Below, piece by piece: positions 751 through 48,900 of a stretch of 63,750 bases of DNA. The position numbers were made by a program, and so were the translations under genes. The stretch spans positions 1 to 63,750 of the IMG/VR virus record IMGVR_UViG_3300044630_001179; one strand, written 5' to 3'. The notes below the pieces were generated by a model. That model had not been told where the DNA came from, searched no databases, and was given only the letters and a program-made list of their open reading frames with translations. The stretch comes from a virus. Its lineage: Duplodnaviria; Caudoviricetes. Each line of letters begins with the position of its first letter. Positions within the stretch are counted from its first letter, which is position 1.

Positions 751-1089
751 TTAAATATTTGAAACTCTTCTACCCATACCAACTCTTGACTTCTCAGCTT
801 TCTTAGCGGCAAGTTTAGAAGGACTTATTTCCGATTTTGTTTTTGGTGTCTTTGAAGACACTCGTGTTGTTGGTCTGCAATATTCATTGCTACCACCTGC
901 ACCACAGGCTTTACCACTTTTTGTATCCTGCCACTTTTCTTTCTCCCATCTTTTCAAACTACTACCTGCTTCAGTCTTTCTAACCACACCTGAACCCTTG
1001 CGACACTTAGCTATTGCTTGTGATGCACGAGCAGATGGGAACACATCATACGATGCTTTGACTTTTTTATAACAGGCATCCTTTGGCAT
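751..1089 (-). CDS. Basic hypothetical phage protein (LKRW.KEKW, YCRP motif; DUF5872-like)
   Basis: ORF track; Lys-rich. Confidence 0.6.
   Translation of the reverse strand: MPKDACYKKVKASYDVFPSARASQAIAKCRKGSGVVRKTEAGSSLKRWEKEKWQDTKSGKACGAGGSNEYCRPTTRVSSKTPKTKSEISPSKLAAKKAEKSRVGMGRRVSNI
846..861 (-). repeat. 16-bp palindrome GTGTCTTCAAAGACAC, copy 1 (inside CDS)
   Basis: Exact match on - strand; encodes VSSKT. Confidence 0.9.
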
Positions 1090-1090
1090 A

Positions 1091-2900: not shown

Positions 2901-4517
2901 TTATTGTTGTTGCTCGTATGTACGAGCCATTGTGATAATTGCGTTTGTACTTAGAATGGTTACAGCTACACTTACTGCGTTCTGCAAGGCTGACCTTGTA
3001 ACTTTCAATGGGTCAATAACACCCATCTCAATCAAGTCACCCATCTGACCGGTCTTAAGATTGTATCCGTGACCAACCGGAGTGCTATCCTTGTAGACAT
3101 CGCTTGGTTTAAGTCCTGCGTTAGCAAGTATCTGTTGGAATGGAGCCATAAGTGCGTTACGAACAATGCTTAATGCTGCGTCATACTCAGCACTATTACT
3201 TGGTTCACCCAACTCAGCACTCTCATCAAGTAACGCTTTGCCGGCACCCGGTAAAATTCCTTCCTCAAGTGCGGAACGTACTGCACAAACAGCGTCATCA
3301 ACCCTGTCGTACAACTCTTTTTGCTCCAAGTCAGTCTGACCACCTACAAATATTACACCAATGCCACCTGTAAGTGACGCTATTCTCTCTAATAAGAAGT
3401 CTTTGTCACCTTTCTTAGTCGCTTCTTTGTGTGACTCCCACAACTGCTTCACTCTTTCCTCAACCAAAGCCTCATCAGCCTTAGCTGTACTGCGAATAAT
3501 GACAGTTTTGTCCTTGCTCACAATAACTTTACCTGCGTGACCTAAGTCTCCGTAGTTGATATGGCTCAAATCATCACCTGTCTTCTCACTATAGTAGGTT
3601 GCTCCTACACTAATCGCAATATCTTGCATCAACTCGTGCTGCTTGTAGCCAAAGTTTGGTGGAGGCACTGCCACCACTTTCAAATTACCCTTAACTGAGT
3701 TCGCTGCAAGTGTGTTCACCACATTACTATTACACGGAGAGATGATAAGTAGCTTCTTGCCTTCACTAATGATTGGTTTCAACACATTCTCAATCTGAAG
3801 TATGTTCGCTATCTCCATATCACAAACCAACACCATCACGTCCTCAAACACGCACTCATCTTTTTTGGCATCATTGATAAACATCGGGCTCAAATACCCT
3901 CTGTCAAATTTCAAACCCTTAGTTGTCTCAGCATATGTGTCTGCCGTTTGGCTTCTCTCAACTGTTACAATACCCGTCTTACCAACGTCCTTATAAACTT
4001 CTGCAATAATGCGACCAATCTCTCTGTCGTTGTTGGCTGAGATAGCCGCCACGTCCAATAACATAGTTGAGCTGACCTTTTTCGCTTTACGTCTTAACTT
4101 GTCCACTACCTTACCCGTTATGTCCACCATATGTCTTAGCACCTCAGTCCTGTTCATATCATCTTTGATATGCTCAAGTCCTCCAAGTACCAATCCTTCT
4201 GTAAGAACAATAGCCGTGGTCGTACCATCACCTGCCGAAGTAGCTGTCTTGTCTGCTGCCTCCTTCATCATCTTAACCGCAAGGTTCTCGCTTGGGTCAA
4301 TTAGGTCAATTGACTTGGCAACTGTTACACCATCCTTAGTAACTGTGATGCCGTGTGTGTGATGCGGACTCTCAATGAGTACAGTGTTACCACTTGGTCC
4401 AAGAGTTGACTTAACAGCCTTAGACATCTTAACTACACCACTGATTAATTTCTTTCTGCCGTCCGAACCGAACTGCAAATCCTTGGGTGAGTACCCAATT
4501 CCTGACGTTTCTACCAT
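2901..4517 (-). CDS. groEL: Chaperonin GroEL (Cpn60); likely start ATG at 4517
   Basis: TLGPSG, VTKDGVTVAK, AGDGTTTA, GGQTD.E.KE, EEGILPG, GVIDP.KV.RSALQNA; promoter element overlaps the longer ORF start. Confidence 0.95.
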   Translation of the reverse strand: MVETSGIGYSPKDLQFGSDGRKKLISGVVKMSKAVKSTLGPSGNTVLIESPHHTHGITVTKDGVTVAKSIDLIDPSENLAVKMMKEAADKTATSAGDGTTTAIVLTEGLVLGGLEHIKDDMNRTEVLRHMVDITGKVVDKLRRKAKKVSSTMLLDVAAISANNDREIGRIIAEVYKDVGKTGIVTVERSQTADTYAETTKGLKFDRGYLSPMFINDAKKDECVFEDVMVLVCDMEIANILQIENVLKPIISEGKKLLIISPCNSNVVNTLAANSVKGNLKVVAVPPPNFGYKQHELMQDIAISVGATYYSEKTGDDLSHINYGDLGHAGKVIVSKDKTVIIRSTAKADEALVEERVKQLWESHKEATKKGDKDFLLERIASLTGGIGVIFVGGQTDLEQKELYDRVDDAVCAVRSALEEGILPGAGKALLDESAELGEPSNSAEYDAALSIVRNALMAPFQQILANAGLKPSDVYKDSTPVGHGYNLKTGQMGDLIEMGVIDPLKVTRSALQNAVSVAVTILSTNAIITMARTYEQQQ

Positions 4518-4544
4518 TTGATTATAATTTAATTTACTGTTGTA

Positions 4545-4552
4545 CAAATATA
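4545..4552 (-). promoter_or_regulatory. -7 promoter element for groEL-groES
   Basis: TATATTTG on - strand, 28 nt upstream of ATG 4517. Confidence 0.6.
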
Positions 4553-5267: not shown

Positions 5268-5594
5268 AATAATTGTTTTAAAACGAATGCGAAATATTTC
5301 AGGGTAAAGATAATTAATTTTTAGATACTCGTAGTGTTGGGGCTATATAGCGGTTTGACGCTGACTGCCCCGGACCGGAAACGACTTTTTTTTTGAGGGG
5401 TGGGGGGTCAATTCGGCTCACGCCTCACAGACTTTTTAGCTTTTTGCCCTGCCTTTGTATGCAGTGGATGGGTCACAGGTAGCGTGACCCGTCCCCTGCC
5501 GGCTGTTGCGTGCCGGCTGTTGCCGTCCCTCCTTGCATTACCCATCCATTGCCCCTGCTTTGCTTTGCTGTATTGAATTGTCAAGCCCTTTGCA

Positions 5595-5610
5595 GTGTCT
5601 TCAAAGACAC
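5595..5610 (+). repeat. 16-bp palindrome, copy 2 (intergenic, upstream of early promoter)
   Basis: Exact match. Confidence 0.9.
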
Positions 5611-5754
5611 AAAAAGAGAGAAAAGGCACAAAGAGAGATGCCTTAGCCCCTGCCTTGCCCTGTGTATGTCTAAACATTGTATGCCCTTTGTACATTACTA
5701 ACAGCCTGACAGCAAAGATTTTTAGCTTGAAATAAAAAAAAGATTGAAAATAAT

Positions 5755-5784
5755 TTTGCAGTATGAAGATTTATACTACATTTG
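5755..5784 (+). promoter_or_regulatory. Early promoter (Bacteroidota sigma70 type)
   Basis: TTTG (5755-5758)-N18-TACATTTG (5777-5784), with an A-rich upstream element, before the first + gene. Confidence 0.7.
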
Positions 5785-5814
5785 TGAAAGAATTAAACAA
5801 TTAATCAACTAAAA

Positions 5815-6465
5815 ATGTACAAAATGAACAATCTATTATCAATTGAAACAGCGTTTCTAAACCTGCCACAAGTGAAGCAGGCATTGAATTTAAGCGAAAT
5901 TCGAGCGGTTCAAAGAACCATCACAAACGCAAAGAAGAAAAAATTCGAGCAAACGCTCGCCCTGTCTAAGTTAGTGACACAGGCTGTTGCGTGGTTTCAG
6001 TCAGAGGATGGCAAACGTGCCTGCAATGATGAGGGCATCAGTTGGAGCAATGAGGAAATAGGCTTGAAGGTTTTCGGATGGCAAAAAAGTTTCTTCTACA
6101 AAGTAGTTAAGGCAGGCAAATTGGATGAGGCAATTGTTACCACGTTCAAAACAAAATGCGATGAGGCAGAAGCAAATGGGGACGAGCCCAACAGGTCATT
6201 GGAAGGCTTATTGAAATTCGCTAAGCAGGTGGAAACAGGAAACACAGGCGGTGGAAATGAGGAGCACGAAATGAGCGACCCTGAAACAACAGGTGAAGCA
6301 CAAATTGAAACAAGGGTTGAAACCATTTTAACGTTCACGTACAAAAATGAAGCAGGCAATGTTTCAGTGCGTATTGATGCAAATGGCGTGGTGAAGACTA
6401 CCAACACAGACGAGCAAATTCGTGAGGCTATTGCAGTATTAAATTTCAGTTTACAAAACAGATAA
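5815..6465 (+). CDS. Early hypothetical protein, possibly HTH-containing
   Basis: ORF track; first gene after early promoter. Confidence 0.7.
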   Translation: MYKMNNLLSIETAFLNLPQVKQALNLSEIRAVQRTITNAKKKKFEQTLALSKLVTQAVAWFQSEDGKRACNDEGISWSNEEIGLKVFGWQKSFFYKVVKAGKLDEAIVTTFKTKCDEAEANGDEPNRSLEGLLKFAKQVETGNTGGGNEEHEMSDPETTGEAQIETRVETILTFTYKNEAGNVSVRIDANGVVKTTNTDEQIREAIAVLNFSLQNR

Positions 6466-6490
6466 TTATCAACCATAAAAATCTACTACA

Positions 6491-7357
6491 ATGCAAACAG
6501 GTATCATTTACACAACCACAGGTCAAAGAGACAGAGGCGAGGTTTCAAATTACCACAGGAAGCCGGAGCCCCTATTTTTAAACAAAACTAAGCACGCTGT
6601 TGACGTGGCAGGCTTAAAGAAGGCAGAGCAAAGAACTGCCATCAAATTTGAGGGCGGAGATTATGAGGCGAAATTTACCATCGGTTTTGAGGTTGAGAAA
6701 AACCAATTGTCACGTAACGCAGTGCGTGAGTATGAGCTTTTTTGTGGCTTCGAGCGTGACGGGTCGTGCGGTTATGAGGCAGTCACTCACGTGCTCCCAT
6801 TACTTCCGGCAGGCAAATGGCGTACAAAGGTTTTTGACCTTATGCACAAAGCCGAAAAAATCATTGATGACAGATACAGCCCGTCTGACAGACGTTGTGG
6901 CGGTCACATTACCATTGCTGCCGATGGCTTCACAGGTGAGGAATTAAGGGCTGCCGTTCGCAAAAATGCAGGCATCATTTACGCCCTATTTCGCAACAGG
7001 CTTGAAAACAGATATTGCAATGCAAACAACAGGATGCAGAATATATCCGGTGACAGGTATCAGGTGAGCCTTGCAAAAGGCAAATGCTTAGAGTTTCGCT
7101 TGCCATCACGTTTTGAGTCTGTTAAGCAAATGATGAGAAGATACGAGTTATTTTATGAGATGGTTAATTTCAGCGTAAGCAAGCCGAACGGGTCACACGA
7201 GGCGTTTTTAAAGAGCATTACGCCCATCGTCTTATCAATGTACAATGGTGACACAGACAAAGCAAATGAGGTTCTGAGACTTGCAAAGCTATTCAGAGCG
7301 TACATCCTTGATGGCACAATACATCCTGACATTGCGAGATATTTAAGAGGATATTAG
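6491..7357 (+). CDS. Putative amidoligase (COOH-NH2 ligase type 2-like)
   Basis: FTIGFEVE, ERDGS.GYEAVT, CGGHITI, LEFRL motifs of the glutamine-synthetase-like amidoligase family. Confidence 0.7.
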   Translation: MQTGIIYTTTGQRDRGEVSNYHRKPEPLFLNKTKHAVDVAGLKKAEQRTAIKFEGGDYEAKFTIGFEVEKNQLSRNAVREYELFCGFERDGSCGYEAVTHVLPLLPAGKWRTKVFDLMHKAEKIIDDRYSPSDRRCGGHITIAADGFTGEELRAAVRKNAGIIYALFRNRLENRYCNANNRMQNISGDRYQVSLAKGKCLEFRLPSRFESVKQMMRRYELFYEMVNFSVSKPNGSHEAFLKSITPIVLSMYNGDTDKANEVLRLAKLFRAYILDGTIHPDIARYLRGY

Positions 7358-7370
7358 GATACAATGGGGG

Positions 7371-7386
7371 GTGTCTTCAAAGACAC
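7371..7386 (+). repeat. 16-bp palindrome, copy 3 (before HH1)
   Basis: Exact match; stem extendable by GGGG/TCCC. Confidence 0.9.
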
Positions 7387-7390
7387 TCCC

Positions 7391-7443
7391 TGCTGTCGCA
7401 GGGTGTTTGCCCTGCCTGACGAGTCCAACAGGACGAAACAGCA
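7391..7443 (+). ncRNA. Hammerhead ribozyme type III (HH1); predicted cleavage after C7397
   Basis: TGCTG-TC | GCAGGG-tgtttg-CCCTGC | CTGACGA | GTCC-aaca-GGAC | GAAA-CAGCA: all core nucleotides and three paired stems. Confidence 0.93.
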
Positions 7444-7464
7444 ACCACAAAAAAATCAAATCAA

Positions 7465-7575
7465 ATGGGAACACACATCACAATTTTAGAGGCAGTAATT
7501 ATCAGCCTGACATCCATCGTTTTATGGGTGTTTGTTAAAACTTTAATTCAACATTATAAACCATCAAAAAAGTAA
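7465..7575 (+). CDS. Small single-TM membrane peptide (36 aa)
   Basis: Translated by hand: MGTHITILEAVIISLTSIVLWVFVKTLIQHYKPSKK; preceded by AATCAAATCAA. Confidence 0.65.
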   Translation: MGTHITILEAVIISLTSIVLWVFVKTLIQHYKPSKK

Positions 7576-7578
7576 GTT

Positions 7579-8118
7579 ATGTACATCAAAACAGCCGAAA
7601 AAGTACGTGTAGAAAATTACCCGTATTCATTTACACTTCGCACTACATTGTTCGACACAATGGAGTTCAACCCTAAAAAAGGTTACAGACACGTGACCCA
7701 AACAATCAACCCAAAGACAGGGCGTGAGAACAACCCAAAGAAATCGACATACTATCCGCTCCTTGTTCGGTACAGAAACGAAGAGGGGCACATAAAAAGT
7801 ATGGCTTTTGACTTCAATGGGCGTGATGAGTTGAACAGGGGCGTTCAGTTTATAGCAGAGAACTTCGACCTATTCAGTGCCGATGAGGTTCAGTATTTGT
7901 ACTCAATCCTATTCACGATGACAGCCGTTGATATGAAGGCGACAGTGATATATGGAGGGGCGAAATTTGACGACCTTAAACCTATTTATGACCCGTTTAT
8001 CGACACTATCAAGCAGGGCTTGACAGGTGGGGGAAATGTACTGACAGGTTTGAGATTAGATGCGGAGGCAATAGAGAAGGCAAAGCCTGAGGGGTACAAT
8101 CCATTCAGAGTTAGGTAG
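7579..8118 (+). CDS. Early hypothetical protein (VENYPY.F.LRT...TQT.NPKTG..N.PKKSTY)
   Basis: ORF track. Confidence 0.75.
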   Translation: MYIKTAEKVRVENYPYSFTLRTTLFDTMEFNPKKGYRHVTQTINPKTGRENNPKKSTYYPLLVRYRNEEGHIKSMAFDFNGRDELNRGVQFIAENFDLFSADEVQYLYSILFTMTAVDMKATVIYGGAKFDDLKPIYDPFIDTIKQGLTGGGNVLTGLRLDAEAIEKAKPEGYNPFRVR

Positions 8119-8127
8119 CAAGTGGGG

Positions 8128-8143
8128 GTGTCTTCAAAGACAC
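8128..8143 (+). repeat. 16-bp palindrome, copy 4 (abuts HH2)
   Basis: Exact match. Confidence 0.9.
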
Positions 8144-8195
8144 TCCGTCCCTGAGTGAGTTGCTCAGGCTGATGAGTCCCAAAGGACGAAACGGA
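8144..8195 (+). ncRNA. Hammerhead ribozyme type III (HH2); predicted cleavage after C8149
   Basis: TCCG-TC | CCTGAG-tgagttg-CTCAGG | CTGATGA | GTCC-caaa-GGAC | GAAA-CGGA. Confidence 0.93.
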
Positions 8196-8216
8196 AACCA
8201 CTTAAATTAAATTCAA

Positions 8217-8411
8217 ATGACACAAGAACAAATGACCATCGAAAGACAGCGTAATGAAACCATTCAGGACGTAATCGACAGACTACTTTACCTGCCGGCA
8301 GACAAGTTGGAAGAGTACAAGTACTACCTCAATGTATTAGTGGACGTGTATCCCATTGATATGAAAATTGAGGACGGAATCAGAATCTATCACGTATCAA
8401 AAAGAAAGTAA
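8217..8411 (+). CDS. Hypothetical protein
   Basis: ORF track; directly downstream of HH2. Confidence 0.65.
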   Translation: MTQEQMTIERQRNETIQDVIDRLLYLPADKLEEYKYYLNVLVDVYPIDMKIEDGIRIYHVSKRK

Positions 8412-8412
8412 A

Positions 8413-8538
8413 ATGAAAATCTTATCAGTAATCTTAATCGTATCGTTCCTAACTTCTTGCAGTGTTGAGTACAAAATTGCTCACTACAAAAGACCAAACA
8501 GAAAACAGACCTGCATCGTTGGGAAGAGACCATTCTAA
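8413..8538 (+). CDS. Small lipoprotein (41 aa, lipobox LTSC)
   Basis: Translated by hand: MKILSVILIVSFLTSCSVEYKIAHYKRPNRKQTCIVGKRPF. Confidence 0.6.
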   Translation: MKILSVILIVSFLTSCSVEYKIAHYKRPNRKQTCIVGKRPF

Positions 8539-8550
8539 AATCAAATCAAT

Positions 8551-8712
8551 ATGGAAAGTCAACACTATTTCAAAGTATTCTACGGACAAGTATGCGTATG
8601 GTCAGTAGTCGCCCACACTAAGTGGGAGGCTATTGACAAGGCGTACTACAAATTCATTGGGGATAGACCCCATTTAGATAGGGCAAAGTTCAAGGCAAAG
8701 AAGGTTTATTAG
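8551..8712 (+). CDS. Small hypothetical protein (53 aa)
   Basis: Translated by hand, MESQHYFKVFY...; AATCAAATCAA leader. Confidence 0.6.
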   Translation: MESQHYFKVFYGQVCVWSVVAHTKWEAIDKAYYKFIGDRPHLDRAKFKAKKVY

Positions 8713-8720
8713 AAAATAAA

Positions 8721-8752
8721 TTTGGAGATGTCTAATTTATGTCGTATCTTCG
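8721..8752 (+). promoter_or_regulatory. Putative promoter
   Basis: TTTG-N20-TATCTTCG (one mismatch to TAnnTTTG). Confidence 0.5.
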
Positions 8753-8780
8753 TTCAATATCAGTTCAATAACAGGGTTCT

Positions 8781-8796
8781 GTGTCTTCAAAGACAC
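8781..8796 (+). repeat. 16-bp palindrome, copy 5 (5' leader of GATase-GGCT)
   Basis: Exact match. Confidence 0.9.
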
Positions 8797-8816
8797 TGCC
8801 CACAAATCAAATCAGT

Positions 8817-9917
8817 ATGTGTGTAATCATTATCAAGCAGACAGGGAAGCACGTTCCTCAGGAGGTTGCAAAGACCTCAGCAAGAATCAATCCTCACGGG
8901 TTGGGAATTATTTGGCTCGACACGTTCGAGGTTACCTATCACAAATCGTCCGAATACGCAGTATTGGACACAAAGCGACCATTCATCGCTCATTTTAGAT
9001 ATGCTACCATTGGTGCTATCAACAAGGAGAATACGCATCCATTCAGATGCGGGAGTAACAAACAGGAGTGGCTTATGATGAACGGTACTATCAGAGCACT
9101 TGGCAATTTCAAGAAGAGTGATTCAAGAGTATTGGCAGAGAACTTGGGAGAGATACCACGTCATAAATGGAAGAAGGAATTGGAGCAGTATGAGTGCAGG
9201 TTCGTTACGATTAACACGCACAGCAGAACGTATCAGGTGTATAACAAAGACTTATGGATTCAGAAGGATGGCGTGTGGTACAGCAAGGACAATGTACTTG
9301 AAGATAATTTAGTTGCGGTGTATGGCACGTTGAAGAAGGGTTACAGCAATTACAACCATTACCTTACCGGCTCAAAGCACTTGGGTAAGGGTGAGACCAA
9401 AGATAAGTATCCGCTTGTCATTCAGGGTTTGCCATACTTGATTGAGAAGAAGGGAGTAGGGCACAATGTGGAGGTGGACGTGTTCAAGGTGAGCGGTGGA
9501 ATATTGGCACAGCTTGACAGGTTGGAAGGTCATCCTAATTGGTACAGACGTAAGCAGATTGAGATTCAGATGAAGGACAAGACACTTACCTGTTGGATAT
9601 ATTTTAATATCAGAGAGAACGAGAAGGGACACGAGTTGCATAAGACATACACTCAGTTGCCTAACAAAGTGAAGTGGTACGAGGAGGAGGATGAGATAGA
9701 GAGCGAGAGGGTATTTAGTAAGTATGCTGACAGGCAGTTGAGTTTGCTCGATATATTCGAGGATGATTGTGAAGATTGTGGTTTTGATATAGTAAATGAG
9801 AAGCCCATTTGTGTAGATTGTTTTCACGACTTGGAACACGATGGCTTTGCGAACTACCATTGTAGTGGTTGCGATGGTTGGTTTGCTGAGGATGAGGTAC
9901 TGCGATTTAAACCTTAA
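8817..9917 (+). CDS. Class II (Ntn) glutamine amidotransferase fused to gamma-glutamylcyclotransferase (GGCT/AIG2-like) and a C-terminal Zn-ribbon
   Basis: Start MCVII gives the N-terminal Cys; NPHG.G, HFRYAT.G, HPF, MNG; then VAVYGTLKKG and LDRLEG; CVDC...CSGC. Start moved from 8781 to 8817. Confidence 0.8.
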   Translation: MCVIIIKQTGKHVPQEVAKTSARINPHGLGIIWLDTFEVTYHKSSEYAVLDTKRPFIAHFRYATIGAINKENTHPFRCGSNKQEWLMMNGTIRALGNFKKSDSRVLAENLGEIPRHKWKKELEQYECRFVTINTHSRTYQVYNKDLWIQKDGVWYSKDNVLEDNLVAVYGTLKKGYSNYNHYLTGSKHLGKGETKDKYPLVIQGLPYLIEKKGVGHNVEVDVFKVSGGILAQLDRLEGHPNWYRRKQIEIQMKDKTLTCWIYFNIRENEKGHELHKTYTQLPNKVKWYEEEDEIESERVFSKYADRQLSLLDIFEDDCEDCGFDIVNEKPICVDCFHDLEHDGFANYHCSGCDGWFAEDEVLRFKP

Positions 9918-9932
9918 CCTCAGTAGTGGGTG

Positions 9933-9948
9933 GTGTCTTCAAAGACAC
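9933..9948 (+). repeat. 16-bp palindrome, copy 6 (before HH3)
   Basis: Exact match. Confidence 0.9.
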
Positions 9949-9953
9949 TGCCC

Positions 9954-10004
9954 TCCGTCCCGGGATGTGCGTCCCGGCTGATGAGCTCGAAAGAGCGAAA
10001 CGGA
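9954..10004 (+). ncRNA. Hammerhead ribozyme type III (HH3); predicted cleavage after C9959
   Basis: TCCG-TC | CCGGGA-tgtgcg-TCCCGG | CTGATGA | GCTC-gaaa-GAGC | GAAA-CGGA. Confidence 0.93.
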
Positions 10005-10019
10005 AACCATCTAAACAAA

Positions 10020-10403: not shown

Positions 10404-10406
10404 GTT

Positions 10407-10867: not shown

Positions 10868-10871
10868 TCAA

Positions 10872-11769: not shown

Positions 11770-11794
11770 TTGAACGATGTATGAACATTTTCAC

Positions 11795-39790: not shown

Positions 39791-40729
39791 TTATGGATTT
39801 TGTTCTTGTTGTTCCTTAGCCATATTGAATTGTACAACTTCGGATTCACGAATAGATATACCACAATACTGAAGAATCCTTGTAATTAATTTATACTCAT
39901 CTTCCGGAGGTAATTCAAAGTCTTGGTAGTCAGATTGTGATTGGTCAAATACAGGCTCACCATTAGCCAAAGTAATGTATGTCCATTTAGGCACCTTAGG
40001 GTATCTAAAATAGGTTGCAAGAACCTGACCCTTGTTACTTATGGTTGTAGGGTAGAAAGTCAATTCTTCGCCTTGTAATGCGTAAACAGGGAACTCTATT
40101 GTTGGTTTAGTTAAATTAGAGTTAACCAATAAATTAAGTTTACTATTAATTACCTTTTCTGCTTGATTAATAGTTGAAGAAGAAAATATCGCATAAGCGT
40201 TACCTGCTGCCAAAAATATATTTGAATCTAATTGAATTGCTGTATTACTAAGTACCAATACCACGGTAGATACCAAACCTGTAGTAAGATTTGTAACTAC
40301 ATCTCCTGCTGAAAGACCATTGGTTAAGAATGTTGCTGTACTATCAACCAACTGCCCACTAACTACAGCAGTATTTGTCCCGGTCTTAAGCGTTACAGGC
40401 TTGCATTTAACATCCAACAACATATAGGTTAAATATCCCGTAGTTGAAGGAGTAGGCATTGAAAATTTATTAGCTGATATTTTTGAAAGATAATCTGTAC
40501 GTAAGAAATACTCCAACACTTCTGCAATAGGTTGTTCCATATCGGCATAATCTACGCCTGCTGCTCTTGCATTTTCAGCATTTATAACCTTGTTATAGCT
40601 GCTAAAATATTCCTCGTAAATTTCCATCTGCGAATTTTGAGCATACAGATTGAAATCAGAAGGTGATACATATCCGTAGTTGTTTTTATTCAACACAGAT
40701 AATACCGTATTTCTTACTGAGTTTATCAT
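39791..40729 (-). CDS. Head-tail connector/ring protein with inserted beta domain
   Basis: MINSVRNTVL..LNK.N.GY..P..FN..A, Y.R.P..PKW, DFELP; start at 40729 after TATATTTG (40744-40751). Confidence 0.6.
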   Translation of the reverse strand: MINSVRNTVLSVLNKNNYGYVSPSDFNLYAQNSQMEIYEEYFSSYNKVINAENARAAGVDYADMEQPIAEVLEYFLRTDYLSKISANKFSMPTPSTTGYLTYMLLDVKCKPVTLKTGTNTAVVSGQLVDSTATFLTNGLSAGDVVTNLTTGLVSTVVLVLSNTAIQLDSNIFLAAGNAYAIFSSSTINQAEKVINSKLNLLVNSNLTKPTIEFPVYALQGEELTFYPTTISNKGQVLATYFRYPKVPKWTYITLANGEPVFDQSQSDYQDFELPPEDEYKLITRILQYCGISIRESEVVQFNMAKEQQEQNP

Positions 40730-41586: not shown

Positions 41587-41620
41587 AAAAAAAGGAGAGT
41601 GTCTTTGAAGACACCCTCCC
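41587..41620 (-). terminator. MCP terminator whose stem is built around the 16-bp palindrome
   Basis: On - strand GGGAGG-GTGTCTTCAAAGACAC-TCTCC followed by a T7 run. Confidence 0.75.
41599..41614 (-). repeat. 16-bp palindrome, copy 10 (MCP terminator)
   Basis: Exact match. Confidence 0.9.
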
Positions 41621-41639
41621 TATAGATTTTCTTCCTTTA

Positions 41640-43058
41640 TTATCCGTAACGGAATAATACGAAGTTGTTAGCACCCAAGGTACATACGCAACGCTCAGAA
41701 AGGAAGTTAACCTCCATTGCATCCAAGTCGCTTGTAGCAGCACCACCGGCAGAACCTGTAATCCAAGTTTTGTATCTGCGGTCTTCAGCTTCAGAAGCAC
41801 GGTAACGAACGTGTAAGAAAGGACGCTTAGCGTTCTTGCCCATAATTTGGTCGTACACTGAAGTAGAACCTGCAGGAACCATCAAACCTGTGATAGTACC
41901 GGTTGCAGTTGCAGCAGTAGTATTTAAACCACCACGCATTGTTGGGTCATTTAGGTATTTCCAATCAGACTTGTAGAAGTCATAACCTCTACGGAAACCT
42001 GTGAAACCTAAGTTCAACGCCATATCAACATCGTTATCGAAAAGACCGAAAGAAGCTGATTGAGCAACACCACCTGAAGTGTAGCCGTTCAATGTAGCTA
42101 ACATATTGTCAATATCGAAGCTCAATCCACGATTTACGAATACAACGTTCTCTTCGATAGCACCTTGCTTGTCAAGACGAGAAACGATTGAATCCCAATC
42201 AGAAAGAGTTGTTGGAGTACCACCACCCCAAACGTTACCACGGTTGTTTACAACGTAGAAGATACCTTCAGAACCAATGTAACCTGCAGTAGCAGCACCT
42301 GAAGAAGATGCAGCCGGAACAGCTTCAATCATTGAAGTCTCTAAGTAATCTTCAAAACGTAAACGAGTTTCGTGCTCACTCTTTAAATACCAAAGGTATC
42401 CTGTAGCACCATTCTCTGTAGTTACTTCTACCCAACCGATTTGAGCCATATCAGAACCGTTAACCGCATACTTATCTTTGATGATAATAGGGTTGTTGCT
42501 GTAGATGTCATCTTCAGATTCTAAAGAACCAACCATTCCGTTAGTACCTTTTTTGAACTCAGAACCGTAAATGAATACAGTACATTGAGTAGAAACTGCG
42601 AATGCTTGACCTGCAGTCTCATAGTAAGCTACTGTGAAAGTAGTTGCTGAAGGAACTGCTGTAACGATAGCCTTGTTGAAAACACCTGATGTATTGTTTT
42701 GAATCATCAAAGTTTGTCCAACACGGATAGCGATGTAAGTAACACCACTGTCAGCTACAGTAAAAGTTGCGGTTGCCGCACCTGCTGCTGCTGCTGAAGT
42801 ACAGTTTGTGTACTTAATGTGTAAACGTCCTTGTTCTGCCCATTTGATTTGGTCAGAGTTAGACGGCATCTCTGCTCCTACCATACGTAAGAAAGATGCG
42901 ATTGTTCTATTACCATAACGCTCAAATTCTTTCTCGTATGTATCAGGAAGATACTGATTCAAGAAGTTGAAGTTGGTAATGTAGTTTGTCTGTAACGCCA
43001 CCTGCTCAGCACTTGGCTGTAATTGGTAGGTGGGGTTATTCAATAAAGCACTTGCCAT
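41640..43058 (-). CDS. Major capsid protein (crAss-like/Flavobacteria-phage type)
   Basis: QYLPD.YEKE.ERYGNR, W.EQGRLH, YLWYLK.E.ETR.RF.DY, GF.GFRRG.YDFYK..WKYLND, FLSERC. Confidence 0.85.
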   Translation of the reverse strand: MASALLNNPTYQLQPSAEQVALQTNYITNFNFLNQYLPDTYEKEFERYGNRTIASFLRMVGAEMPSNSDQIKWAEQGRLHIKYTNCTSAAAAGAATATFTVADSGVTYIAIRVGQTLMIQNNTSGVFNKAIVTAVPSATTFTVAYYETAGQAFAVSTQCTVFIYGSEFKKGTNGMVGSLESEDDIYSNNPIIIKDKYAVNGSDMAQIGWVEVTTENGATGYLWYLKSEHETRLRFEDYLETSMIEAVPAASSSGAATAGYIGSEGIFYVVNNRGNVWGGGTPTTLSDWDSIVSRLDKQGAIEENVVFVNRGLSFDIDNMLATLNGYTSGGVAQSASFGLFDNDVDMALNLGFTGFRRGYDFYKSDWKYLNDPTMRGGLNTTAATATGTITGLMVPAGSTSVYDQIMGKNAKRPFLHVRYRASEAEDRRYKTWITGSAGGAATSDLDAMEVNFLSERCVCTLGANNFVLFRYG

Positions 43059-44218: not shown

Positions 44219-46654
44219 TTAACGAGGCTCAAATTCCGCTAAGTCAAACCCATCCAAACTATCCTCGTTTGACTCAAAAGTCATTGGCGGAAGATTGTTC
44301 TTTCTTTGATTAATTAACTTAGATTGCTCGGTGTTTTGCTGACTAATTCTTTTAGCTTTTGCGTCCTCTTTCATCTGCTCTCTTGCAGTTAAGTCACCAA
44401 CCTCCATACCACGTAGCTGAAGATTATACTGAAACTCCTCACGCATTAACTGAGATTTAAGCATAGCTTCCTGCTCAGATTTTTGAATGTCAAAGGCAAC
44501 CTCTGCTTGTTTAATCTGCATTTTAGATTGAGTTTCCAATTGTATCTTCTGCATAGCCGTCTCTGCTGCCATCTGTTGAGCTTGTAATTGCTGCTGAGCA
44601 ATCATAGCTTGTTTCTGCATAGCCATCTTCTCCTCACGTTCTTGAGTCTTCACACGCTTCATCTTAAGTAATTGGTTTGCCAATTTAAGATTGCGAATCT
44701 CACGGATGTCAATTGCATCCTCAAGATTAATGTCGCCCTTAGATAATGCCATTTGGATATTAGCTTCAAGCTGTGCTTTCTGCTCTTCATCAGGTGAAAC
44801 CTCAATGAAAATACCAAAGTCATAAATGTAAAGGTCTTTAATATCGTTTAATATAGATACGTTGTACTTTCCAATTTGGTTTGCAAACTCTTCTTTAAAG
44901 TCAGCATACTGCAAAATGTCAGCAACTCTATATGTTAAAGCCTCAGCTAATGTACGGAACACGTACAATGAACCATCAAGGATATGTCTTGTAGCTGTAT
45001 TAGAATTTAACGCAGCTAATTTCTGTAGACCAACTAATGAGTTAGGGTCAGGATTAGAACCATCTCTTGCTTCGTTAAGACCGGTTACGGACCTAATCAT
45101 ATCAATGTAATGGTTCATATTGGTGATTAACATCTGCGTTTTAGCTGCACCTGAGTTAGATGTCAACTGAGTAATAGGTACTCTTGCATTGTTAAAGTCA
45201 CCATCTTGAGTAAAGCTACGTCCAATTACACTACCTGTTTGGAAGTATAACCTTAATGCATCCTCAGGATTATATGCGTTACCCGTTCCTAAGTCAATTT
45301 CATTTAAGCCATCAGCATCAATAAATACACCATCGGGTACGGTACGAGCAATAACTTGTTGTAGTTTTAAGTGCGTGATTTGAATCAAATCAGCAAATGG
45401 TATCATCCTTCTGCACAATGATTCAATAGCACCTTTGTACATACGAGGAGCACAAGCAACATAGTTAGGTATTGCGTGTTGAGATGCTGACTTAGGACGA
45501 ACCATATTCTCAGACATTCTCCATTGCAATAAGATATTAGTACCCATTACCATAATACCTTCATACCACACATCAATTGTTTTCTCAATCTTTTCAAAGT
45601 TACCTTCCTCCATCATTTCAGCAGGAGGGTTAAAAGTTTCGTCTTTCTCAATTACTCGAGAACCACCACCTTCAAGTCTTTTCTTTTTATAAACAACTTT
45701 CTTTGTGCTCTTATAATTAAAATACATCAACGTGCAAGTGTCTCTATAAAACATATCGTTCTGATAGAACTGTGCTACGTTGTAATAATCGTACCACGCT
45801 TGGCTATATTGAGTAATTTCTTGTAAGTCTTCTTTGGTTAATGATTGGTCAATCTTCATAAGTTCCGTTAAAGGAACTGTCTTAATTTCTCCCCAATAAA
45901 AACAATCTTTAAAAAATGGGTCTTCTGTATAGCTGTAGACCATATTTGCAGGGTCTACATATGAAATCTTAACACCTGTTCCTTGTAAGAACTCGTGCTT
46001 TGCAACACTAATACCAATAACAGTTTGGTCGTAGTTTAATCTTTTACGAATATCTTCATAATGATTCTCATCAAATATTGTATTAATAGCTTCTTCTTCA
46101 GCTATCTCAATTGCAGGCTTATAATTAAGCTGCATATATAATGATAATTCTTCGTCTGTTTCAGGAAGCTCATCGGGCTCCATCATAAATGTGTCTACCC
46201 CTGTCTTCTCTTTGATAGTCATCAAAATATCTTTTGACACCATCTGTGCTTCAACCATATCCTGATACTTACTTCTTTTAGCTTGAGACATTGCATCTTG
46301 TGCATATGCTTTAACTTTGAATAGCCTATCAGACATTCCGTTTACAACAATATCAATAAATTTTGGAAGAATAGGAACCGGAGTCCAATCAAGATTTAAG
46401 TAAGACAAATCACCATCAATAGCTAACTCATTTTTATATTTACCAATTGGTTGCTCACCTCTTGCATAAAGTCTTAATCTACGGAAATCTTGCCATTGAC
46501 CATAGTATCTACAGTTGTTACCATCTTTTCTAAACCATTCGTATTGAATAGCCTGACCCACTTGCAATCCAAAAGCATCTGTTGCTTTCTCGGCATCAGT
46601 CGCTAATTGACTTGGGAATGCTGCGGTGTTTATGTTGATTGTTACATTTTTCAT
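44219..46654 (-). CDS. Portal protein
   Basis: RLYARGEQ...KYK.EL..DGDLSYLNLDWTPVP, TGLNEARDGS; Gln-rich C-terminus; next to terminase. Confidence 0.85.
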   Translation of the reverse strand: MKNVTININTAAFPSQLATDAEKATDAFGLQVGQAIQYEWFRKDGNNCRYYGQWQDFRRLRLYARGEQPIGKYKNELAIDGDLSYLNLDWTPVPILPKFIDIVVNGMSDRLFKVKAYAQDAMSQAKRSKYQDMVEAQMVSKDILMTIKEKTGVDTFMMEPDELPETDEELSLYMQLNYKPAIEIAEEEAINTIFDENHYEDIRKRLNYDQTVIGISVAKHEFLQGTGVKISYVDPANMVYSYTEDPFFKDCFYWGEIKTVPLTELMKIDQSLTKEDLQEITQYSQAWYDYYNVAQFYQNDMFYRDTCTLMYFNYKSTKKVVYKKKRLEGGGSRVIEKDETFNPPAEMMEEGNFEKIEKTIDVWYEGIMVMGTNILLQWRMSENMVRPKSASQHAIPNYVACAPRMYKGAIESLCRRMIPFADLIQITHLKLQQVIARTVPDGVFIDADGLNEIDLGTGNAYNPEDALRLYFQTGSVIGRSFTQDGDFNNARVPITQLTSNSGAAKTQMLITNMNHYIDMIRSVTGLNEARDGSNPDPNSLVGLQKLAALNSNTATRHILDGSLYVFRTLAEALTYRVADILQYADFKEEFANQIGKYNVSILNDIKDLYIYDFGIFIEVSPDEEQKAQLEANIQMALSKGDINLEDAIDIREIRNLKLANQLLKMKRVKTQEREEKMAMQKQAMIAQQQLQAQQMAAETAMQKIQLETQSKMQIKQAEVAFDIQKSEQEAMLKSQLMREEFQYNLQLRGMEVGDLTAREQMKEDAKAKRISQQNTEQSKLINQRKNNLPPMTFESNEDSLDGFDLAEFEPR

Positions 46655-48900
46655 CTAATCAATTGACTTGTTGTTCCTTCGTTTTTATATTTAGCGAAGT
46701 TAATAATTAATTTCGATTCTTTTTTCTCCGGTATGTATAGATGCTTCTGATTAGCCATAATGCATAATCCCGAACTAATGGAGGCATCGAACCTTGTTCT
46801 GTCATTAATGTCAAACTTAGCCCAATCCTCAAGCGTTCTTGTAAATGGCATTGTGCCCATTTCTTCAGGGTCTCTATACTTTGCTTCCAAGTCTAATCCA
46901 ACATACTTCTCAATATAAGATTCAATAGCGGAGGCGTGTGCTTGCTTAACATCTTCTGATGAGTTTGGAATACCTCCTAACTCACGCTCAGTCTTTGTTA
47001 ATTTAGCCAACTGCTTATCCGGTCTATTAATAGAAAATCCTCTGTATCCTCTATTTTTAATATGGTATAAAAGCCTTGGTTTATTATTCTCCACTAAGAT
47101 AGGCATTCCGTAGAATATACAAGCCATTAGTACTTCTTCAAAGAATATTTCTGCCGTTTGTGGACGAGCAATGTACTCTAAAAAAAATTGATTGGTTGGT
47201 GCGTCATCCATATGAAACTTAGTCATACCGTGAAGTGCACCATTAGAACCACGTCCACCTACTACAGCAGAGATGTCATAAGAGTCACAACCAAATGAAC
47301 CAAGATGCTCATTACCCGGATACTTGATTCCGTTGCGTATGTGCACATTATTTTGCATATGCTTAGGAGGTGCCCAACTTATTAGGAACCTACCTCGTGT
47401 ATCAGGAGTCCATATCACCTCGCTATCTTTAATACCATCCTTCCACGAAAATGCCCCACGAGTAAGGTATTGCCCCTTAATCATTGAGTCGTTATAATCA
47501 ATCTGCTGATATAGTTTAGTTAAATTGAATAAGGCTTGCTTGCTCTCGTCTCTAAAAGCGTGAGACTCTGTTCTTGGAAACTGACGATAAAATTCGTTTA
47601 GTGCGTCAGCATCACTATTTAAAGACTCAACCTCCGCTTCCCAATAGTCAATGGCTCCGTTTTTAATCCAATTACCATCCACACCCATAATAGGCTCCTC
47701 AGGTTTGCGAAACACAGGATGACCATATCTGTCAATGAATCCTTCCATATTCCACTCCATTGGAATAAATATGGCATATAAACCACTTTTAGTTTGCCCG
47801 TTGGCGTTACGTACTTTTACGTTTGAGTCCTCGTAAATATCTTTATAGTTCTGTCCCCCTTTGCTTAATGCATTGGACGTTGAACCCATCATACATTTAC
47901 CGATAATCTTACTACCCAAGCGAAGACAGGTTTTGGTTACACGCCAATTCTCTTTAATGTTTACAGGCTTGGTCCACTTGGCAGACTCATCGTGTGCCAA
48001 AAATAATAGCTTCTCTCCATCGTATGAGTTGTCCTCAGTATTTTTCCAATCTATTGATGTATCAAGTCCATCGACATCATTGTCGTCAGTCTCATACATA
48101 TTCTTCTTAGTAATCTTTGCTGCCGGAACCCTATACGCCAACTCAGTTTTTGGCTTGTCCATACCATCCATAATCGGTTTGAAAAAGAATGGTAGGCGGC
48201 TATTGATTGGTACAACCTTATCGGTGAACATCTTCTTAGCATCCGCACCTGTCTTAGATAAGATACCTATACGTGCGTCACGAGCGAGCGTACCTATGTT
48301 CACGCACTCTGATGATGACATAAACGAGAACCCTGAACGTCTAATTTTTAGGTATATCATACCAAATGACCTCGGGTCAGCACGACAGGCTTCCCAAAAT
48401 ATCCAATAGATTCTATTGGCTTCACGGAAGTCAGGGTATCCTATGTCAATACTTGACCATTGCAAGTACATATAATGAGAGCCGGTTATGTAAGTCTTTA
48501 CTCCATTGTTCATAAACCAACATCCTTGCTCACGGTAGTCAAACTCCTGCTCAATATAATCTACCCAACGGTCTTTAAATTCTTTTGGCTTTTCGTTCCA
48601 TTGAAATATGGATTGTATCTTGGCTAACTCACGTGGAAGGTCTTGACGTTCCCAATATTGTTCAGCCTTAGTGGAGTGTCTTTGAAGACACTTTTCAGGA
48701 GCAAGCGGAAGAGCAATAATTAATCCTTCTATCTCTACTATCTGTCCTATCTGTCCGGTCTTTGAAATTACAATAACATCGTATTGGTCGTTATACCCAT
48801 ACAGCCACGACCTCACCCTATTTTTGTTAGAGATAACGGCAGCCGGTATGTGATTATCGACTATACGGCATAGATTATTGTTTTGACCTTCTTTCTGCAA
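46651..48900 (-). CDS. terL: Terminase large subunit
   Basis: KIRRSGFS Walker A-like, HDESAKW Walker B, GST, GCDSYD nuclease motif, ENNK. Confidence 0.9.
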   Translation of the reverse strand: MQKEGQNNNLCRIVDNHIPAAVISNKNRVRSWLYGYNDQYDVIVISKTGQIGQIVEIEGLIIALPLAPEKCLQRHSTKAEQYWERQDLPRELAKIQSIFQWNEKPKEFKDRWVDYIEQEFDYREQGCWFMNNGVKTYITGSHYMYLQWSSIDIGYPDFREANRIYWIFWEACRADPRSFGMIYLKIRRSGFSFMSSSECVNIGTLARDARIGILSKTGADAKKMFTDKVVPINSRLPFFFKPIMDGMDKPKTELAYRVPAAKITKKNMYETDDNDVDGLDTSIDWKNTEDNSYDGEKLLFLAHDESAKWTKPVNIKENWRVTKTCLRLGSKIIGKCMMGSTSNALSKGGQNYKDIYEDSNVKVRNANGQTKSGLYAIFIPMEWNMEGFIDRYGHPVFRKPEEPIMGVDGNWIKNGAIDYWEAEVESLNSDADALNEFYRQFPRTESHAFRDESKQALFNLTKLYQQIDYNDSMIKGQYLTRGAFSWKDGIKDSEVIWTPDTRGRFLISWAPPKHMQNNVHIRNGIKYPGNEHLGSFGCDSYDISAVVGGRGSNGALHGMTKFHMDDAPTNQFFLEYIARPQTAEIFFEEVLMACIFYGMPILVENNKPRLLYHIKNRGYRGFSINRPDKQLAKLTKTERELGGIPNSSEDVKQAHASAIESYIEKYVGLDLEAKYRDPEEMGTMPFTRTLEDWAKFDINDRTRFDASISSGLCIMANQKHLYIPEKKESKLIINFAKYKNEGTTSQLIR
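48676..48691 (-). repeat. 16-bp palindrome, copy 11 (inside terL)
   Basis: Exact match; encodes KCLQRH (different reading frame). Confidence 0.9.

Follow-up and report, generated by a model that had tools for sequence, protein, structure and literature searches.

A lineage-specific 16-bp palindrome repeated across a phage genome, its candidate phage-encoded reader and its use as an RNA hairpin at a subset of sites

Introduction

In the record of an aquatic phage, IMGVR_UViG_3300044630_001179 of IMG/VR (Duplodnaviria; Caudoviricetes) the 16-base near-palindrome GTGTCTTCAAAGACAC, which has 7+7 symmetric arms, is found in 11 exact copies, and the question raised by this element is what holds one sequence constant at so many places, including the insides of genes. 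The record was analysed at its full length of 63,750 nucleotides, which is referred to here as the window. A first-pass annotation of the same letters had offered two functions, alone or combined: recognition of the double-stranded DNA (dsDNA) by a phage protein, as an operator or parS-like site, and formation of an RNA hairpin to which a protein binds. In our study selection on the nucleotides and the use of a subset of copies as RNA hairpins have both been supported. The reading which we favour, with confidence that is about evenly balanced, is that the copies form a genome-wide set of dsDNA operators for a 216-aa protein encoded by the first early gene (5815-6465, + strand), and that a part of them doubles as RNA hairpins.

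Eleven exact copies in a complete genome

An exact search of the whole genome placed the copies of GTGTCTTCAAAGACAC at start positions 846, 5595, 7371, 8128, 8781, 9933, 13645, 19289, 26925, 41599 and 48676, just as had been given before, and no copy was found in 100 dinucleotide-preserving shuffles. When up to 3 mismatches were allowed, the same 11 places were returned and no degenerate copies, with 0.81 expected (this search recounts each copy on the opposite strand as 2 mismatches). The earlier judgement that the copies are implausible by chance is thus borne out.

The window is a single contig and the entire assembly, and identical 127 bases stand at its two ends (1-127 and 63624-63750; 123 bases in the relative G003), which points to an overlap from circular assembly and is no proof of a terminal repeat. 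The phage genome is thus complete and was assembled as a circle, so that 11 represents the genome-wide count of the element. Genes lie on the + strand across 5815-21576 and on the - strand elsewhere. As written, GTGTCTTCAAAGACAC stands on the + strand for the copies from 5595 to 13645 and on the - strand for those at 846, 19289, 26925, 41599 and 48676; relative to the local transcript, nine copies are sense, one is antisense (19289) and one lies in the control region upstream of the early promoter, a tally that the first-pass annotation had right. Long open reading frames (ORFs) hold four of the 11, i.e. the copies are not confined to extragenic space. By PHROG matches, the encoded proteins include a capsid-type virion protein (41640-43058), a portal protein, a primase-helicase, a helicase and the terminase large subunit (46651-48900). 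Among named relatives the uncultured podovirus MW202828.1 stands closest, with a terminase of 77% identity; it is followed by Flavobacterium phages of the genus Elemovirus, at 44%, and by Cellulophaga phages.

Exact conservation in relatives and selection on nucleotides

An exact-pattern scan of IMG/VR returned at least 120 stretches with GTGTCTTCAAAGACAC, several of them with 3-9 copies. Five relatives of ~60 kb, which were taken in full, carry 10, 12, 11, 9 and 13 exact copies, and a reversed control pattern gave 0 copies in the same five; they can be aligned with the window over 13-32 kb only, at 68-72% nucleotide identity. Synteny is observed for the copies in terminase, helicase (antisense), the DUF5872 gene, the giant gene and the capsid terminator, and for the one upstream of the GGACT gene. 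The search of relatives proposed earlier has shown that the motif, instead of being lacking, is either kept exactly or replaced by a lineage-specific palindrome, which points to a lineage-specific reader encoded by the phage.

The four coding copies were confirmed to read as had been described. Copy 846-861 (-), which is syntenic in the relatives G002-G005, lies inside the DUF5872 ORF 751-1089(-) and is read VSSKT, as is copy 26925-26940 (-) within the 2376-aa ORF. Copy 19289-19304 (-) is antisense in the helicase ORF 18115-19572(+), with SVFEDT on the coding strand, and copy 48676-48691 (-) occupies codons 70-75 of the terminase large subunit ORF 46651-48900(-), where it is read K-CLQRH. The terminase place was followed in 80 loci of 75-94% amino-acid identity, chosen without regard to the motif, and the exact motif stands at the same codons in 32 of them. 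CLQRH is encoded in 33 loci; 32 of these use TGT CTT CAA AGA CAC, for which the genes' own codon usage gives an expected share of 0.013, and the preceding codon ends in G in all 33. The remaining 47 loci have different residues at the site (CFQRH, CHQRH, CYKRS, VYKRS and others), and hence terminase is not in need of CLQRH, the nucleotides are selected and the site can be lost. On these codon choices, selection acting on the nucleotides of GTGTCTTCAAAGACAC, as had been claimed earlier, is strongly supported.

The coding copies also bear on the possibility that the palindromes are selfish or by-product repeats, that is, REP-like mobile palindromes or microhomology junctions of cassette exchange, with no dedicated reader. 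Highly variable genes do stand between copies (seven compared genomes contain no homologue of those in 7579-8118, 8217-8411 and 9981-10169), and both an exonuclease and a single-strand annealing protein, Sak, are encoded by the phage. Such an origin is nevertheless hardly credible, as four of the 11 copies are inside genes and the coding copies arise by point changes with no change of length, intermediate states of the site being seen in terminase. Moreover, synteny at 70% identity goes together with one sequence in all copies, and unselected drift or gene conversion would lead to per-genome sequences, not to one that is common to 52 of 80 loci. No transposase was seen in the scanned ORFs.

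Alternative palindromes in other lineages

In MW202828.1 nothing was found within 2 mismatches of GTGTCTTCAAAGACAC, and this genome carries 14 copies of the perfect palindrome GTGTCGTTAACGACAC, all in the early operon; by the printed flanks, most of these stand just past a stop codon, some 17-25 nt before an ATG and a few without a nearby ATG. A second motif-unbiased set took the GGACT gene as its anchor and comprised 80 loci with flanks of 10 kb on either side. The main palindrome type (centre CA/TG or TA) is present in 52 of these loci, one of ten other palindromes in 16 and no single signature (none or a mixed set) in 12. The other palindromes are GTGTCCTCAAGGACAC; GTCTCTTCAAAGAGAC together with its TTCGAA-centre form GTCTCTTCGAAGAGAC; GTCCGTTTAAACGGAC; the TCCG-arm forms TCCGTTCAAACGGA and TCCGTTATAACGGA; and GACGCCTTGAGGCGTC, GCTCGTCAACGAGC, AGTCTGTTCGAACAGACT, GAGAGTTTGAACTCTC and GAGGGTTCAAACCCTC. 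In all of them both arms change together and symmetrically, and the centre is mostly TTCAAA-like. Whole genomes of three other-palindrome lineages have 8-15 sites each. In loci L223-225 and L248 the arms GTGTCT/AGACAC are kept and the 4-nt centre is free. A pyrimidine-purine rule for the centre, which is true in the main lineage (CA/TG, TA, CG), was dropped because of the CC/GG centres in G008/G009.

The genome G010, whose own signature is GTCTC...GAGAC, contains hybrid sites GTCTCTTCAAAGACAC at 35100-35115 and 40160-40175 with one GTCTC-type and one GTGTC-type arm, and these may be transitional half-sites of a specificity switch. The helicase place was counted in 63 loci, comprising 41 of the main class, 15 of other classes and 7 without a defined signature. 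In the main class the motif is exact in 35 loci, has 1 mismatch in 5 and 2 mismatches in 0, and is missing in 1; for the other classes and their own palindromes the corresponding numbers are 1, 4, 2 and 8. This place reads SLFEET with the lineage's own GTCTC...GAGAC palindrome in L250, SLFQQT in L283/L289, SPFERT in L251 and SVFKDT in L272, and in L249/L255 the motif stands 10 codons upstream of the usual place, where VFGDD has become VFEDT. The amino acids of the helicase have here given way to the site.

Two outgroups were compared. In Flavobacterium phage elemoA (Elemovirus), whose terminase has 44% identity, no 14-mer occurs more than two times, and in Cellulophaga phage phi38:1 no recurring palindrome was seen over the first 40 kb; the system is therefore confined to the clade with the 216-aa gene and the replication module. 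Neither copy-and-paste nor an RNA fold alone can account for one sequence per genome, symmetric changes of the arms and sites inside genes. Together with the differences between lineages and the origin of the in-gene sites by point substitution, these features argue for a trans-acting, lineage-specific reader.

The 216-aa protein as candidate reader

Three candidate readers had been named by the first-pass annotation: the winged helix-turn-helix (wHTH) protein 2181-2642, the DnaA-C-like protein 11824-12126 (Pfam PF08299, 9e-11) and the product of 5815-6465. All window proteins with homologues in at least 40 of 81 loci were entered in an association test, in which their identity to the window was regressed on that of conserved markers in the main class. 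In the other motif classes the 216-aa protein showed the largest excess divergence (residual -13.2 points, p 2.3e-07), compared with -8.3 for its 288-aa neighbour (6491-7357) and +2.0 for the wHTH protein. In a pairwise, marker-corrected test it again stood at the top, among 11 proteins (+0.14 p-distance, permutation p 0.003), and the values for the 288-aa, DnaA-C-like and wHTH proteins were +0.079, +0.071 and -0.003. Of the three candidates, the product of 5815-6465 thus tracks the motif class and the DnaA-C-like protein has a modest effect only. The wHTH protein was rejected as it has no association with motif class. The 288-aa protein has many invariant residues and its model is glutamine-synthetase-like (Foldseek E 1.4e-04), and for this enzyme-like fold its association signal is probably due to linkage.

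The putative recognition helix of the 216-aa protein, KSFFYKVVKAG, hardly varies within the main class and takes another form in each of the remaining arm classes. Its identity is 0.74 in same-arm pairs versus 0.35 in different-arm pairs, the respective values for the rest of the protein being 0.47 and 0.28; in background-matched pairs the helix has 0.69 versus 0.38. In L223-225 the arms and the helix are both unchanged, the whole protein is 45-47% identical to that of the window and the neighbouring genes are 70-92% identical; a segment after the helix-turn-helix is absent from the protein in these loci.

Structural analysis with AlphaFold2 gave a model (predicted local distance difference test, pLDDT, 84.6) that consists of a helical N-terminal domain with the helix-turn-helix at ~79-101 (helix 79-87, turn, helix 91-101), an acidic disordered linker and a C-terminal beta-beta-beta-alpha domain. 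In a homodimer test the protein scored 0.47, as against 0.00 for the best of 3 controls; the mark used here, a rough one for which our own alignment was used, is reached by 20 of 30 same-chain-pair proteins and 1 of 23 single-chain proteins. Contact agreement between the runs was at least 96% and partner pLDDT at least 79. The predicted interface is formed by residues 6-75 and 169-216 and leaves helix 91-101 free. A helix-turn-helix dimer on B-DNA would be well served by two arms of 5 bp whose centres are separated by 11 bp, and the finding of lineage-specific outer arms at this spacing, which follow the helix-turn-helix helix of the predicted dimer, is the signature expected of a duplex-DNA operator.

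In VIA-align the top rows were KorB 8qa8_A (Z 5.0, root-mean-square deviation (rmsd) 4.6, 86 aligned), KorB 1r71_A with operator DNA (Z 4.4, rmsd 3.2, 84 aligned), VirB (Z 3.9, 79 aligned) and SopB (Z 3.7, 78 aligned). These are ParB-family DNA-binding domains and have the longest alignments in the list. The ParB N-terminal domain PF02195 was detected in 0 of 46 members of the 216-aa family at E up to 1, and residues 9-62 of the model are helices that form the predicted dimer interface. Pfam gave no match for 10 longer or remote family members. The single result of an Atlas search, a 29% DUF3102 cluster at 0.91, serves as a lead only, and an exhaustive profile search collected ~390 proteins or clusters (~200 aa among the 150 listed) with no link to a named family. 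From these comparisons the 216-aa protein is the best candidate reader, with a putative recognition helix that tracks the arms of the palindrome.

The control region and DNA transactions

The copy at 5595-5610 (+) lies in the 547-bp divergent control region and is kept in 16 of 16 aligned relatives; it is flanked by a C-rich repeat stretch on one side and by a purine-rich AAGAGAGA stretch on the other. The string TTTG-N18-TACATTTG follows 145 nt downstream at 5755-5784 (+), before the 216-aa gene, and is promoter-like by a consensus which was not derived by a tool and which we take to be the host type. By this consensus only two convincing promoter-like strings precede genes in the whole genome, and ten of the 11 copies of GTGTCTTCAAAGACAC lie more than 200 bp from any such string.

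The control region as a whole (5268-5814) is a stretch of 50-70% GC in a 38% GC genome. It contains, in this order, the conserved blocks GACTTTTTTTTTGAGGGGTGGGGG and TTTTTAGCTTTTTGCC, lineage-variable C-rich repeats (CCCGTT, CCTGC), the palindrome and the AAGAGAGA repeats. The region may represent a non-coding RNA or an origin; Rfam gave no match within 5268-5814.

The conserved copy in this repeat-rich, strand-asymmetric region, a possible origin, is one of the observations by which the same 216-aa protein might instead be assigned to DNA transactions, with the palindrome as a parS-like site for centromere function or condensation, a replication origin, an element of fork control, or a packaging mark. 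The best though weak structural matches of the protein, i.e. the ParB-family DNA-binding domains, would agree with this, and so would the genome-wide spread of copies with genes included, since parS-type sites are spread over the whole genome and also occur inside genes. The orientation in the window further falls into two blocks, + for 5595-13645 and - elsewhere, but this fails in G002. Neither a ParA-type partner nor a ParB N-terminal domain was found in what was scanned, and the 14 copies of MW202828.1, located before starts in the early operon, suggest gene expression rather than segregation. The phage moreover looks lytic, no lysogeny module having been noticed, though no systematic search for lysogeny genes was made. 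Hence we regard a role in DNA transactions as quite unlikely.

Hairpins, ribozymes and other signals at the RNA level

The copy at 41599-41614 (-) is the apex of an intrinsic-terminator-like hairpin at 41592-41621 (-), which follows the capsid-like ORF 41640-43058(-) and has 13 pairs, a loop of 4 and then a T run, and the earlier assignment of this copy to the capsid terminator stem is correct. No T run is present in the printed flanks of the other ten copies, so that terminator features are seen at 41599 only.

Three copies in the early region are directly followed by matches to the type III hammerhead ribozyme. Copy 7371-7386 (+), situated 13 nt past the stop of the 288-aa ORF and with ggggg/tccct flank pairing, precedes the match at 7390-7444 (+; 44.7 bits, E 2.3e-07). 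Copy 8128-8143 (+), 9 nt past the stop of a 179-aa ORF, precedes the match at 8142-8197 (+; 45.1 bits, E 1.8e-07), after which an ATG stands at 8217. Copy 9933-9948 (+), 15 nt past the stop of the GGACT gene and with gggtg/tgccc flank pairing, precedes the match at 9952-10006 (+; 44.5 bits, E 2.7e-07). The gathering score is 48.5, and accordingly Rfam at gathering thresholds gave no match on the window and the hammerheads surfaced in an E-value search only. They begin 0-3 nt after the copies, cover model positions 1-54 of 54 and have an intact core (GUC triplet, CUGAUGAG or CUGACGAG, CGAAAC), with stems I-III paired and differing between copies. A fourth copy, 13645-13660 (+), lies 96 nt past the stop of the exonuclease gene and 29 nt before a weak tRNA-like element at 13690-13752 (+; Rfam tRNA 19.1 bits, E 4.7), which ARAGORN left uncalled as it found no tRNA on the window. 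The four RNA-processing-type elements that had been noticed behind copies are therefore three sub-gathering hammerhead matches and one weak tRNA-like match.

Across the sequences compared, a loose hammerhead core pattern is present at 141 places in 87 sequences (80 loci, G000-G005 and MW202828.1), a number that is not de-duplicated across overlapping contigs, and a hammerhead core follows 63 of 468 distinct family copies. The copies before hammerheads have the centre CA in 50 cases, TA in 11 and TG in 2. Self-cleavage would leave an upstream RNA whose end is made of the palindrome hairpin and a few further nucleotides. At least 3 extra flank pairs were found at 38% of 308 distinct intergenic copies, the share being 7% among 156 coding copies and 5.3% among 3,440 random places. 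Copies before a T run, of terminator type, show no orientation bias (CA 18, TG 14, TA 3). The family-wide count of sense-strand centres is CA 262, TG 103, TA 40 and CG 6 for sites that are non-independent; all the orientation counts include many homologous sites, and the bias may be the result of common descent of hairpin-ribozyme modules. Half-changed stems on the sense strand have 28 G.U against 21 C.A, which is neutral for RNA pairing. Two RNA runs (0.08 and 0.06 of sampled words), which are stored as contigs and mostly hold relatives at 88% likeness, are uninformative on ends, strand and level. Joints of their contigs skip 9937-10016 (third hammerhead) and 13661-13755 (tRNA-like element), and were not used as such joints are often those of other organisms. 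Judged from the sequences, the use as an RNA hairpin is real at a subset of sites, namely the terminator, the copies before hammerheads and the flank-paired 38% of intergenic copies.

Palindrome-adjoining tRNA-like elements were seen at 13690-13752 in the window and at 17299-17372 of L127 (G003). They have a good T arm and an aberrant anticodon arm (ARAGORN 'tRNA-???' in G003), and are possibly RNase P/Z processing signals.

These signals can also be taken to mean that the RNA hairpin is primary. The hairpin GUGUCU-UCAA-AGACAC would then punctuate two long polycistronic transcripts and be read by a sequence-specific RNA-binding protein, possibly the 216-aa protein itself; it would guard 3' ends that arise from hammerhead or RNase P-type cleavage, build terminator stems and insulate A-rich leaders 19-23 nt before starts. 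The position of the motif at the terminator apex, the adjoining ribozymes, the stem-extending flanks with covarying pairs at the copy upstream of the GGACT gene, the bias towards one transcript orientation before ribozymes and before ORF starts, and the GNRA-type loops where the centre is free are all in favour of such a role. Clustered hammerheads that cut phage transcripts into gene-length mRNAs are moreover documented (PMC3088659). On the other hand, half-changed stems have no preference for G.U over C.A, the coding copies lack flank pairing and would be unwound by ribosomes, and the helicase copy is antisense in most of the relatives read. The motif is flipped in the terminator of G002, and terminator-type copies have no bias of orientation. 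The 14 copies of MW202828.1 have no evident flank pairing (judged by eye on printed flanks), and the orientation bias may reflect the common descent mentioned above. The lineage-specific part is the outer stem, which tracks the helix-turn-helix helix, and the outer stem of A-form RNA is hard to read in a sequence-specific manner. On balance we consider an RNA-primary element unlikely.

Copies before start codons and the promoter alternative

Distinct copies that stand 12-30 nt before an ORF start number 144 in the family (CA 96, TG 32, CG 7, TA 9), and the mode of the distance is 19-23 nt. In the window, copy 8781-8796 (+) is 20 nt upstream of the ATG (8817) of the GATase/GGACT fusion gene and is syntenic in G002-G005; its outer flanks covary across relatives (ggg/ccc, gag/ctc, gagg/cctc).

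The fixed distance to the start, and the presence of the motif before nearly every early gene of MW202828.1, would be explained if it were a phage promoter element, with the 216-aa protein as a MotA-type or sigma-type appropriator and a middle-class transcript for each motif-led cistron. The scarcity of host-type promoter-like strings fits with this, and so does the early region, where the first two genes have no motif between the promoter and themselves and the following cistrons have one. A palindrome is directionless, though, 32 of the 144 copies before ORFs are reversed, and many copies are in coding regions or terminators. As stem III of the hammerheads begins 0-3 nt after the motif, the transcripts in question must already contain this part of the sequence, and no -7-like element follows the motif in our own reading of the printed flanks. 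Further, no phage RNA polymerase was found: DFDxD is absent from the three largest proteins, and a PDB sequence search gave no match for the 2376-aa protein and adhesin-like repeats only for the 2469-aa protein (53498-60907). The latter has UspA1-like and ice-binding-like repeat matches (PDB 3pr7, 9.9e-20) and is probably a fibre or adhesin, not a polymerase. The same results were weighed for hairpin promoters of N4 type, which depend on a virion RNA polymerase encoded by the phage. The early transcripts of the crAss-like phage phi14:2 have no common upstream motif (bioRxiv 10.1101/2020.03.07.982082), and for this reason phi14:2 gives no precedent. A promoter element is very improbable in our view.

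Neighbouring features of the genome

Several features stand beside the palindrome system. Besides the three early intervals given above, genes with no homologue in the seven compared genomes lie in 16807-17562, 50385-53475 and 62347-63687; an N6/N4 DNA methylase is among the homologue-less genes, and the variable cassettes of the early region stand between copies of GTGTCTTCAAAGACAC. A nucleotide search of the early region against GenBank phages gave no match. The phage encodes its own GroES (2639-2896) and GroEL (2901-4547), as do its relatives, Elemovirus and phi38:1. The fusion of GATase class II and gamma-glutamyl cyclotransferase at 8817-9917 (Pfam GGACT 7.3e-23) looks like part, together with the 288-aa protein, of a conserved early amide-ligase or peptide-modification module; an amidoligase identity considered for the 288-aa protein received no support from Pfam. 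The leader AAATCAAATCAAATG recurs before start codons, as a 14-mer in 6 copies in the window and also in relatives, and is probably the translation-initiation leader of a host without Shine-Dalgarno pairing; phi38:1 has a similar recurring leader, AACACTATCAAA.

Discussion

The 16-mer is best described as one member of a lineage-specific palindrome family N5-TTCAAA-N5', and its members would be the genome-wide sites of a phage-encoded dimeric helix-turn-helix protein, the product of 5815-6465, with a weakly KorB/ParB-like DNA-binding domain and without the ParB N-terminal domain. In the operator reading favoured here, this gene would be transcribed first, from the host-type promoter. The dimer would then read the two outer arms of 5-6 bp, one helical turn apart, on dsDNA at about a dozen sites, of which one lies in the divergent control region, several at early cistron junctions and a few inside long late genes. 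Bound in this way it may control transcription genome-wide, the sites forming a set of operators, silencers or roadblocks comparable to KorB-OB or to stoperators. We infer that the protein binds the site, that it does so on DNA and not on RNA, and that binding has such an effect. The genome appears to consist of two divergent transcription units that leave the control region with its universally conserved copy; as the putative reader is the first rightward product and most sites are at cistron junctions, timing or silencing of transcription is suggested. Being palindromic, the site has also been incorporated into longer RNA hairpins at about a third of its intergenic copies, and copies before hammerheads would stay as a 3'-terminal hairpin on the upstream mRNA after self-cleavage. 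Most simply, the RNA features of the subset arise from a palindromic operator that was built into hairpins needed there anyway.

A number of findings weigh against this operator reading. The flank pairing of intergenic copies points to RNA and is not needed by a pure DNA operator, the copies before hammerheads have nearly one orientation, and GNRA-type loops occur at the ribozyme-adjacent copies in L223-225/L248. With a single exception the 11 copies are more than 200 bp away from any host-type promoter-like string, and the classical overlap of promoter and operator is not seen. For a set of operators it is also unusual that all copies are invariant and that weak sites are missing from the window. 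The association tests were not phylogenetically corrected, and sites and loci share ancestry; with the smaller effects seen for the 288-aa and DnaA-C-like proteins, a module of the early region may have been inherited as a whole. Matches of the fold are weak (Z up to 5.0, whereas the caution line of the tool is 8), Foldseek of the 216-aa model against PDB gave no match at E 0.001, and the family has no Pfam, PHROG or PDB sequence match, apart from one of 46 members with a ParB-like PHROG (E 0.0014).

A more far-reaching proposal, which we hold tentatively and as rather doubtful, is that a large, uncultivated family of aquatic Bacteroidota podophages possesses a private address code, in which a minimal, clamp-less KorB-like dimer, the first product after infection, reads the 16-bp palindrome of its lineage. 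The palindrome would be inscribed in control regions, at gene junctions and in coding sequences whose amino acids change for its sake, and it would be re-read as a hairpin which sets mRNA ends together with hammerheads. If this were true, switching of the code would act as immunity or incompatibility specificity between co-infecting lytic phages.

The element offers an unusually clean and large case, with a 16-mer that is exact across genomes of ~70% identity, at least 10 alternative palindromes in sister lineages, coding sequences that have been adapted to the site, and one small protein, outside all known families, with a putative recognition helix that goes along with the site. It presents a natural series of protein-site specificity switches, in which the co-change of a DNA-binding specificity and a dozen dispersed sites can be tested. 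The coupling of palindrome and hammerhead can be used as a model for the cutting and stabilising of polycistronic mRNAs in phages of hosts whose translation is not led by Shine-Dalgarno sequences. The signature palindrome is also a simple marker by which metagenomic contigs of this phage family can be sorted into lineages. In open-access full text and bioRxiv, we found no description of this element or of a genome-wide regulator-site set in lytic-looking Bacteroidota phages.

Comparison with known systems

REP/RAYT elements, T4 intercistronic hairpins and PeSL cassettes are genome-specific junction palindromes which stabilise mRNA or flank exchangeable cassettes, and to our knowledge they are extragenic only. 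Unlike REP/RAYT, four of the 11 copies described here are in coding sequence and have come from point substitution. In phage lambda, the early protein N reads the short boxB hairpin, whose sequence co-varies with the protein between related phages, and there are two nut sites. As far as we know, boxB sites act as RNA only and are never inside genes, and their reader is an arginine-rich peptide. The present system differs from N/boxB in having about a dozen sites, some of them in genes, and a candidate reader of helix-turn-helix type.

Clustered hammerheads of prophages and phages stand on either side of single genes or short gene blocks, an arrangement that implies the cutting of long transcripts into mRNAs of gene length (PMC3088659). 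In the window and its relatives, by contrast, a conserved lineage-specific hairpin stands directly 5' of the ribozymes, a feature unmentioned in the excerpted text of that source. No description of hairpin-hammerhead pairing in Bacteroidota phages was found in open-access full text or bioRxiv.

The stoperators of Cluster A mycobacteriophages (L5 gp71 type) comprise ~30 sites, mostly off promoters and oriented with transcription, at which elongation is blocked; from lineage to lineage their motif changes along with the repressor (PMC6550527). They are 13-bp asymmetric sites with a monomeric reader (PMC9283540). The resemblance lies in the many genome-wide sites, ten of the 11 here being away from promoter-like strings. 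Stoperators belong to temperate phages and their immunity, whereas the element described here is a palindrome whose candidate reader is a predicted dimer from the first early gene; for this reason the GTGTCTTCAAAGACAC set is not classed as stoperators.

The KorB operator OB is present many times on the ~60-kb IncP plasmid RK2, also inside genes, and serves global silencing by a dimeric helix-turn-helix protein. It is 16 bp long and is either promoter-proximal or distal by 45 to >1,000 bp (PMC11790492). The present element shares with KorB-OB a repeated 16-bp palindrome on a ~60-kb replicon, here with a candidate reader that is predicted to be a helix-turn-helix dimer. The 216-aa family differs from KorB in having neither the ParB CTPase domain (0 of 46 match PF02195) nor sequence similarity. 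As this N-terminal domain is undetected, a sliding-clamp mechanism is unlikely for the 216-aa protein, and with the CTPase domain absent and homology unproven, the system is not a strict member of ParB/KorB. Genome-wide identical regulator sites are known from a plasmid (KorB-OB) and from temperate mycobacteriophages (stoperators). Unlike RK2, the replicon in this study is probably a lytic phage, its sites vary between lineages, and some of them double as RNA hairpins adjoining ribozymes.

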